Shown here in pieces: positions 46,820 to 47,085 of a stretch of 64,000 nucleotides of DNA. The stretch lies in NCBI GenBank assembly GCA_934271715.1, contig CAKQRZ010000004.1, forward strand, positions 11,651-75,650, written 5' to 3'. The notes beneath the pieces are model-generated. The model was not told where the DNA came from. It saw only the letters and a list, made by a program, of their open reading frames with translations, and ran no database searches. The position numbers and the translations under genes are program-made. The stretch comes from an uncultured Alphaproteobacteria bacterium. Its GTDB lineage: Bacteria > Pseudomonadota > Alphaproteobacteria > RF32 > CAG-239. How positions within the stretch are numbered: position 1 is the first letter of the stretch; each line of letters starts with the position of its first letter.

Positions 46820-47085
46820 ATTATTTATCCCTGCGCAAAATGTGGATAAGATTCTATCCACAGACTTACTAACATTAACAAATTATTTAATAAGGTTAAT
46901 AAAAAGTTAATGATTCAAGAAGTTAAAAAATAGTTAACAAATATTCTTAACATATCTTAATAAATTCGGTTATGTGTTAATAAGTTTGTATAACGTTTTT
47001 ACAAAAAGTTTATACTTTGTTAAAAACTTTACAGAGGATGAACTTATGCACATTTAAAGGCTGAATTGTGGATAAGATTCACAAC
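46820..47085. promoter_or_regulatory. DnaA-box / CtrA-box cluster in AT-rich rho-coaE intergenic region (candidate oriC or DnaA-regulated promoter)
   Basis: TGTGGATAA at 46841-46849 and 47067-47075 (the 14-mer tgtggataagattc occurs twice). TATCCACAG at 46855-46863. TTAA-N7-TTAA(C) at 46897-46911 and 46923-46938. Confidence 0.5.

Follow-up and report, generated by a model that had tools for sequence, protein, structure and literature searches.

A candidate chromosomal replication origin between rho and coaE in gut and rumen alphaproteobacteria

What is the role of the AT-rich gap of 437 bp that separates two divergent transcription units, rho and coaE-dnaQ, in the genome of an uncultured alphaproteobacterium? 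The question was raised by an earlier note on a 64,000-nucleotide stretch of contig CAKQRZ010000004.1 (hereafter the window), which described DnaA boxes and CtrA-like motifs in this gap and offered two readings, a Caulobacter-type origin between rho and coaE-dnaQ or a DnaA-controlled promoter. According to the data obtained here, the rho/coaE region is a candidate chromosomal origin of replication (oriC) of this bacterium and of the whole gut/rumen clade it belongs to, and on the basis of sequence comparisons we estimate the probability of this reading at about 0.85. Five lines of evidence support the origin proposed earlier: DnaA boxes at fixed positions, a switch in GC skew at third codon positions (GC3 skew), an A/T tract carrying TT[A/G]T motifs, an enrichment of TTAA-N7-TTAA pairs specific for the N7 spacing, and synteny with Rhodobacterales. 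In type the element would be an ordinary one, a DnaA-dependent alphaproteobacterial oriC with CtrA-type sites, unusually well supported by its conservation in about 45 species. The region and its flanks are as follows.

46669-47105, no strand assigned: rho/coaE intergenic region, candidate oriC; 437 bp, 24% GC against 41% in the window
45415-46668, minus strand: rho, left flank (TIGR00767, 685 bits), transcribed away from the region; GC3 skew -0.10, left-type
47106-48405, plus strand: coaE-dnaQ, right flank (TIGR00152, TIGR01406), transcribed away from the region; GC3 skew +0.28 and +0.10, right-type
47106-47693, plus strand: coaE
47686-48405, plus strand: dnaQ

DnaA boxes at fixed positions

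Seven sites resembling the DnaA box were registered in the region and are designated B1 to B7 from left to right. Column counts refer to the alignment of orthologous gaps from 45 species.

46770-46778, plus strand: DnaA box B1, TTATGCACA, facing the A/T tract; columns T42 T45 A/T T45 N C41 A45 C45 A44 of 45
46841-46849, minus strand: DnaA box B2, perfect TTATCCACA, facing the A/T tract like R1 of Escherichia coli
46854-46862, plus strand: DnaA box B3, CTATCCACA, one mismatch, back to back with B2; conservation weak beyond the genus
46944-46952, plus strand: degenerate DnaA-like box B4, TTCTTAACA; clade consensus TTWTNMACA, two mismatches in this genome
46975-46983, minus strand: DnaA-like box B5, TTATTAACA, one mismatch to TTATNCACA; nearly invariant in the clade (T45 G45 T45 T42 A35 A45 T45 A45 A45)
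47044-47052, plus strand: DnaA box B6, TTATGCACA; eight specified columns kept in 44-45 of 45 species, fifth base free (A22 C6 G16 T1)
47067-47075, minus strand: DnaA box B7, perfect TTATCCACA, convergent with B6 with 14 bp between them; seven columns kept in 45 of 45 species and one in 41, fifth base free (C4 G15 T26)

Two perfect boxes had been claimed before, and both were found where B2 and B7 are now placed, reading TGTGGATAA on the plus strand (that is, TTATCCACA on the minus strand). The identical 14-mer said to surround them, TGTGGATAAGATTC, is also there, and the repeat reaches 17 nt at 94% identity. An inverted near-perfect box had been put at 46855; a plus-strand box does exist at this place, but its register TATCCACAG has to be replaced by the better CTATCCACA of B3. 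Four boxes had been missed: the two copies of TTATGCACA (B1 and B6) and the two degenerate, conserved sites B4 and B5.

Of eight matches to TTATNCACA in the whole window, four fall inside the 437-bp gap. To estimate how often such a cluster arises by chance, 5000 dinucleotide-preserving shuffles of the region were made. Boxes with at most one mismatch, five of which were observed, appeared there with a mean of 0.12 and a maximum of 3, and for TTATNCACA boxes the four observed copies stand against a mean of 0.04 and a maximum of 2. In each of the other 13 intergenic regions of the window that are at least 200 bp long there was never more than one DnaA box.

A scan of species-representative genomes with DnaQ gave a graded set of relatives: a genome of the same species (L007), ten congeners with DnaQ identity of 87-93% (L008-L017), about 40 gut, rumen and faecal metagenome-assembled genomes (MAGs) named "Alphaproteobacteria bacterium" with identity of 59-77% (L018-L060), and Rhodobacterales together with other lineages at about 55%. 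The divergent arrangement of rho and coaE-dnaQ around a gap is kept in essentially all of L007-L060 (DnaQ identity 59-100%), the length of the gap varies only from 412 to 528 bp in 45 species, being mostly about 430-440 bp, and matches to the DnaA box stand at the same offsets across about 45 species. B1 and B2 appear in the alignment as a fixed 9-mer with a free fifth base, just as B6 and B7 do, if less strictly. A free fifth base in four separate boxes fits the known specificity of DnaA, the consensus of which is quoted as TTATNCACA (PMC13643167, PMC1914354). Among congeners the whole gap is 80-93% identical versus 55-70% for third codon positions of dnaQ, which indicates constraint over most of the 437 bp, more than two promoters normally need.

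The divergent arrangement itself, with rho to the left and coaE-dnaQ to the right, had been part of the earlier description and is borne out by the strands and by equivalog-level NCBIfam models, which define the identities of the three genes. The low G+C content of the region described at the same time was likewise seen: A+T makes up 76% here versus 59% in the window, and an excess of A+T was found in all 45 species. A search of the region with Rfam gave no non-coding RNA at the gathering score or at E up to 1. Exact copies of CoaE are present on many human-gut metagenome contigs, and the clade probably corresponds to the gut order commonly named RF32.

Several observations concern boxes in a wider sense. 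Over the whole 64 kb there are 37 9-mers within one mismatch of TTATCCACA, about twice the 15.1 +/- 3.9 found in shuffles; a perfect copy of TTATCCACA at 30481 lies within a Tim44/TimA-like gene, and secA contains three copies with one mismatch (25347-25703). In the strain contig L004 an A-to-G change at the equivalent of 47046 converts TTATGCACA of B6 into TTGTGCACA; 44 of 45 species keep this position, and the change may come from the assembly or from variation in the population. An internal duplication of the region was considered as well, since the spacing of two repeats, D1 and D2, is the same (about 226 bp), but the remaining elements fall out of alignment and this idea was rejected.

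Strand skew around the gap

Raw cumulative GC skew of the window falls to about 35 kb, wobbles up to 47 kb, an interval that contains its minima, and climbs steadily thereafter. Replication bias was separated from the bias of coding strands by means of GC3 skew, calculated for the plus strand. To the left of 35 kb it amounts to -0.18 for plus-strand genes and -0.16 for minus-strand genes, and to the right of 47 kb the corresponding values are +0.14 and +0.24. Between these points ppdK (-0.23), an acyltransferase gene (-0.25) and rho (-0.10) are of the left type, while coaE (+0.28) is of the right type, and the only exceptions are genes of a foreign island. Since left-type genes continue up to rho and right-type genes start from coaE, the change of sign, from -0.17 to about +0.17 in genes of both orientations, is located in the rho/coaE gap. 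A transition from negative to positive on the top strand is the polarity of an origin if the leading strand is G-rich, as is usually the case. Gene orientation diverges from the same gap. Skew was then compared on the two sides of the gap in the 37 related loci whose flanks were long enough: it was higher on the right in 37 of 37, positive on the right in 37 and negative on the left in 32. All these estimates are local, covering the 64-kb window and 12 kb per relative.

The gap between uvrA and ppdK (34964-35299) was tried as another candidate. It lies at the minimum of raw cumulative skew, but it has no DnaA box, is not conserved between strains and is adjoined by ppdK with left-type GC3 skew, and it was therefore rejected.

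The foreign island (38000-43800) has a G+C content of 30-35% and contains hypothetical genes and two tyrosine recombinases (39362-39952, plus strand; 42346-43413, minus strand). It adjoins tRNA-Thr(CGT) at 43665-43740, and its GC3 skew is opposite to that of its neighbours. The island is missing in the strain contig L001, and L006 carries instead a prophage-like block with dUTPase, Dam and a LexA-like protein. The island resembles a hotspot of integration that varies from strain to strain, some 3 kb away from the candidate origin.

Candidate unwinding element and CtrA-type sites

Between B1 and B2, at a distance of 12 nt from either box, the region is almost free of G and C.

46791-46828, no strand assigned: near-pure A/T tract (37 of 38 positions), candidate DNA-unwinding element (DUE); the lowest-G+C 40-bp stretch of the region
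46815-46824, plus strand: TTATTATTAT, that is (TT[A/G])x3-T, overlapping TT[A/G]T motifs on the T-rich strand at the right end of the A/T tract
46829-46836, no strand assigned: short G+C cluster CCCTGCGC between the A/T tract and B2; TG at 46832-46833 conserved

Columns 46795-46809 contain no C in 45 species and only one G each at 46796 and 46807. Each of the two T columns of the TT[A/G] triplets holds in 36-44 of 45 species; in third place A and G are about equally frequent. Of 45 species, 22 have a perfect (TT[A/G])x3-T on the top strand at the position of 46815 and one has it on the bottom strand, against 4.2 +/- 1.9 in shuffles (the TT[A/G]T motif was taken as defined in PMC13643167).

The order of elements, 5'-A/T tract with TT[A/G]T repeats, CCCTGCGC, AAAA, TGTGGATAA-3' with the repeats about 16 nt from B2, is like that at the left end of E. 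coli oriC, where the T-rich strand reads 5'-A/T tract with TT[A/G]T repeats, short G+C cluster, TGTGGATAA-3'. The DUE-R1 sequence of E. coli, TCTTATTAGGATCGCACTGCCC-TGTGGATAA, was checked in 5425 E. coli genomes and is located there between mnmG and mioC; strand, order, approximate spacing and box orientation are the same here. Unlike E. coli oriC, which is flanked by mnmG and mioC, the rho/coaE region has no GATC-rich 13-mers and does have CtrA-type sites. It also differs by the second inward box B1 across the tract, behind a short C-run, a layout for which the term "bilateral" has been used (PMC13643167), and B1 may play a role symmetrical to that of B2.

There is also some likeness to the basal unwinding system of Bacillus subtilis (PMC8287927): B2 is followed by a 16-nt spacer that includes the G+C cluster and by three trinucleotide repeats of period 3. 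With the published search pattern for DnaA-trios, a box, 0-16 bp and at least three copies of NAN (PMC8287927), this genome complies formally, having 3'-TAT-5' three times after a 16-nt spacer. However, B. subtilis trios require a conserved central adenine, whereas across the clade the three repeats have either A or G at their centre (A18/G25, A24/G15 and A21/G22). The repeats are therefore named TT[A/G]T, which fits better, and not DnaA-trios.

To the right of B2 and B3 two pairs of TTAA half-sites are found.

46896-46910, no strand assigned: CtrA-type site 1, TTAATAAAAAGTTAA; position kept in many species, spacer variable
46923-46938, no strand assigned: CtrA-type site 2, TTAAAAAATAGTTAAC; half-site columns kept in 38-43 of 45 species, G before the second half-site in 37 of 45; a site is present here in most species

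Both had been announced as TTAA-N7-TTAA(C). The second indeed occupies 46923-46937 with C at 46938, while for the first the motif is real but starts at 46896 rather than 46897 and is followed by T, not C. TTAA-N7-TTAA is the published consensus of CtrA (PMC1914354, PMC6180460). In this sequence taken alone two such sites are only weakly significant (P ~0.03). In 45 orthologous gaps, however, 79 copies of the motif were counted, spread over 38 gaps, as compared with 6-26 occurrences for other spacings from N3 to N12 and 15.4 +/- 4.0 (maximum 28) in shuffles, so that the significance of the sites comes from comparative data and not from the single sequence. The offsets of the sites at 46896 and 46923 are conserved, and in distant species the half-sites stay fixed while the spacer is free (for instance TTAACCGCTTGTTAAT and TTAAGACTCTGTTAAT); at the sequence level, fixed half-sites over variable spacers are characteristic of a sequence-specific dimer. 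Both sites are located between the B2/B3 and B4/B5 groups, at least 60 bp from either of the promoter-like -35 hexamers described below, which makes a role in the origin more natural than control of a promoter.

Judging from these alignments, the TTAA-N7-TTAA pair is predicted to represent CtrA sites, and we regard this as probable. A number of observations count against CtrA. A tblastn search with Caulobacter CtrA detected nothing either in the window or in the fetched clade loci, its only matches being unrelated regulators in L066 and L073, and family scans of the open reading frames (ORFs) of the window gave no cell-cycle regulators. In a search of protein databases, which was not narrowed to the lineage, the 120 matches listed included no CtrA other than Caulobacter-like ones, and nothing useful came from a literature search for the presumed lineage RF32/CAG-239. 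Moreover, a few alphaproteobacteria lack ctrA (PMC2877005), no enrichment of the motif was seen in the remaining intergenic DNA of these loci (about 50 kb), where other promoters should lie, and the second half-site is mostly GTTAAT and not TTAAC. The pairs may therefore belong to another regulator of the OmpR family, to a nucleoid protein preferring phased TTAA steps, or simply to bent or easily melted DNA. Taken together these possibilities seem to us doubtful, given the N7-specific enrichment (79 versus 6-26), the half-sites kept over variable spacers and the agreement with the published consensus, and for a purely structural reading the exact 11-bp register would not be required.

Two further observations relate to these motifs. 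In coding DNA of the window and L008-L060 N7 is the rarest TTAA-TTAA spacing, with 17 cases versus 20-120 for N4-N11, which could reflect avoidance of spurious regulator sites or codon periodicity. GANTC, the methylation motif of CcrM in Caulobacter, is found at 46850-46854, 46912-46916 and 47076-47080, with three copies per origin region in this genus; the mean over 45 species is 1.22 per region versus 0.36 in shuffles, and individual sites are not conserved beyond the genus.

Synteny, rival readings and proposed mechanism

The same gene families surround a gap in Rhodobacterales. One Paracoccaceae chromosome (L077) has, in this order, mnmE, rho, UPF0093 (HemJ family), a gap of about 400 bp, maf, aroE, coaE, dnaQ and secB. 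In this annotated example there is no DnaA box with at most one mismatch in the syntenic gap, while in 13 of the 14 Rhodobacterales loci examined the gap holds 2-6 of the 3-11 DnaA boxes of the locus. Thus, the Rhodobacterales gap (L077, L061-L086) is similar to ours in its flanking gene families, in its length of about 400 bp, in having less G+C than its surroundings and in the concentration of DnaA boxes. It differs in that hemJ, maf and aroE are absent from the rho/coaE site of the gut clade, and in that TTAA-N7-TTAA is found in 3 of 14 gaps versus 38 of 45 in the gut clade. In Caulobacter maf-aroE-coaE-dnaQ presumably follow COG1806. The origins of Caulobacter and Rickettsia are situated between hemE and COG1806 (PMC1914354). 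The gut clade thus appears to keep the ancestral alphaproteobacterial origin site, from which the haem gene, maf and aroE were removed, so that rho and coaE were brought up to the origin.

The features used by Brassinga and Ioannidis (PMC1914354) to describe Cori of Caulobacter crescentus and to predict the origins of Rickettsia, Wolbachia and Ehrlichia provide a more formal comparison. Intergenic sites for DnaA, CtrA (TTAA-N7-TTAA) and IHF (WATCAN5WTR, weak) were found in the rho/coaE region together with A+T above the window average; neither hemE nor COG1806 (RP001) was found among the ORFs of the window scanned, and of the wider conserved neighbourhood the rho and coaE-dnaQ sides are retained. 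Like these origins, the region is an AT-rich intergenic stretch of about 400 bp with DnaA boxes, CtrA-type sites, an IHF-like site and putative outward-reading promoters inside, and no other nearby intergenic region has such a cluster. Unlike them, it is directly abutted by rho and coaE, its boxes are perfect E. coli-type TTATNCACA, and it has two CtrA-type sites instead of five, lying clear of strong boxes and recognized here from sequence.

The usual neighbours of dnaQ, secB and the Tim44-like gene, are located 16 kb away in the window, and their positions, as well as that of ppdK, vary between relatives. In some of them (L022, L032, L034, L056) ppdK and secB are on the other side of the origin. 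At 32444-34963 uvrA stands between a CarD-like gene and ppdK here and in L001 and L004, and in L003 and L005 the CarD-like gene is followed by ppdK directly. Variable positions of secB, the Tim44-like gene, ppdK and uvrA suggest frequent rearrangements round the origin. Elsewhere in the window there are long ORFs (360-571 aa) having no match in Pfam or NCBIfam (16970-19970, 7326-8408, 27256-28350 and 336-1601), a type IVb-like pilin directly downstream of secA (22646-23488), a pentapeptide-repeat protein (49729-50883) and an autotransporter (61464-63983).

The remaining elements of the region are related to transcription of the flanking genes and to a possible architectural protein.

46735-46763, minus strand: putative rho promoter, -35 TTGACT (46763-46758), 17-nt spacer, -10 TATAAG (46740-46735); columns kept in 42-45 of 45 species
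46998-47026, plus strand: putative coaE-dnaQ promoter, -35 TTTACA (46998-47003), 17-nt spacer, extended -10 TGtTAAAAA (47018-47026); overlaps a conserved palindrome
47082-47094, minus strand: IHF-like match TATCAAAAAGTTG (WATCAN5WTR), at the same position in about 17 species; taken as weak evidence

The promoter-like hexamers were taken from the conservation profile; a consensus promoter scan of the region gave only weak, non-conserved matches and did not list the rho set. At least one IHF-like match is present in 32 of 45 regions versus 16.7 +/- 2.8 in shuffles. The palindrome (46991-47031) is imperfect and conserved, consists of TAACGTTTTTACAAAA and TTTGTTAAAAACTTTA 9 nt apart, covers the coaE promoter-like hexamers and could be an operator for some dimeric regulator.

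Some of the data do not favour an origin at this place, or narrow the argument for it. The lowest point of raw cumulative skew is at about 35 kb and not at 47 kb, probably owing to coding-strand effects in ppdK and the foreign island at 38-43.8 kb. The uniqueness of the box cluster among 14 intergenic regions of at least 200 bp holds for the 64-kb window, and dnaA, hemE and COG1806 (RP001) were not found among its larger ORFs scanned. In addition, B6 and B7, the best-conserved boxes, lie between the promoter-like hexamers and the ATG of coaE, which would also suit a transcriptional operator.

This last circumstance bears on the DnaA-controlled promoter suggested in the earlier note as an alternative. 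In the strictest form of this reading the region would hold nothing but divergent promoters of rho and coaE-dnaQ, repressed or tuned by DnaA at B6/B7 and B1, with the origin located elsewhere. The position of B6 and B7 downstream of TTTACA-N17-TGtTAAAAA fits it well, B1 abuts the -35-like TTGACT of rho, and coupling to DnaA would be plausible for dnaQ as a replication gene. If the hexamers are real, B6/B7 lie in the coaE leader and B1 next to the rho -35, and DnaA could modulate transcription here within an origin, as it does around other origins; to this extent the two readings are compatible. As the sole function of the region, however, promoter control is unlikely: it leaves unexplained the change of GC3-skew sign, located here in the window and likewise in 37 of 37 relatives, the conservation near a correctly oriented box of an A/T-only tract whose TT[A/G]T repeats are specific to one strand, the spread of seven box-like sites across 300 bp, the synteny with a DnaA-box-rich gap of Rhodobacterales and the constraint over the entire 437 bp. 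Even less credit can be given to a locus near the origin that titrates or recycles DnaA in the manner of datA or DARS. A cluster of DnaA boxes with an IHF-like site is typical of such loci in E. coli, but the skew switches at rho/coaE and not at a neighbouring gap, no other intergenic region of at least 200 bp in 64 kb has more than one box, and the region contains an A/T tract with motifs of the single-stranded type, while datA and DARS have not been described with an unwinding element. Three features by which an oriC is recognized, namely a significant non-coding cluster of DnaA boxes, an A/T tract with predicted unwinding next to a box and a local switch in both skew and gene orientation, are found in the rho/coaE region, and we prefer to consider it as the origin.

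With the elements at the positions observed, initiation may be imagined as follows. DnaA would occupy the high-affinity boxes B1, B2, B6 and B7 and, when bound to ATP, also the degenerate B3, B4 and B5. The inward-facing B1 and B2 would bracket the A/T tract at 46791-46828, which would melt, and its T-rich top strand with TT[A/G]T repeats (46815-46824) would be captured by DnaA anchored at B2, in parallel to the DUE and R1 of E. coli. Loading of helicase and bidirectional replication would then give rise to opposite G/C skews and divergent gene orientation on the two sides. The two TTAA-N7-TTAA sites (46896-46937) most likely bind a dimer of a CtrA-type response regulator, which would gate initiation as in Caulobacter. 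The putative promoters of rho and coaE-dnaQ are placed inside the region, and B6 and B7, downstream of the coaE hexamers, may additionally allow DnaA to modulate transcription of coaE-dnaQ.

Placement of the origin would anchor growth-rate estimates from metagenomes (peak-to-trough), replichore-aware checks of assemblies and skew analyses for MAGs of this widespread, uncultured clade. In the footprint of 45 species natural variation dissects an alphaproteobacterial origin with unusual clarity, and perfect E. coli-type boxes, a bracketed A/T tract, strand-specific repeats and CtrA-type sites are seen together. It suggests that capture of single-stranded DNA via TT[A/G]T extends to Alphaproteobacteria, and that the boundary genes hemE and COG1806 can be lost while the origin stays by coaE-dnaQ and rho. 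The clade consists of strictly host-associated gut and rumen alphaproteobacteria, at least 38 species of which have TTAA-N7-TTAA in the candidate origin gap, and this suggests that origin gating of the CtrA type persists in anaerobic gut lineages. Whether their replication cycle is gated by CtrA in the manner of Caulobacter and includes a replication-silent cell type is, in our estimate, an even bet on these sequences. If the lineage is devoid of ctrA, a different, as yet undescribed origin-binding regulator sharing the TTAA-N7-TTAA specificity would have to be assumed.

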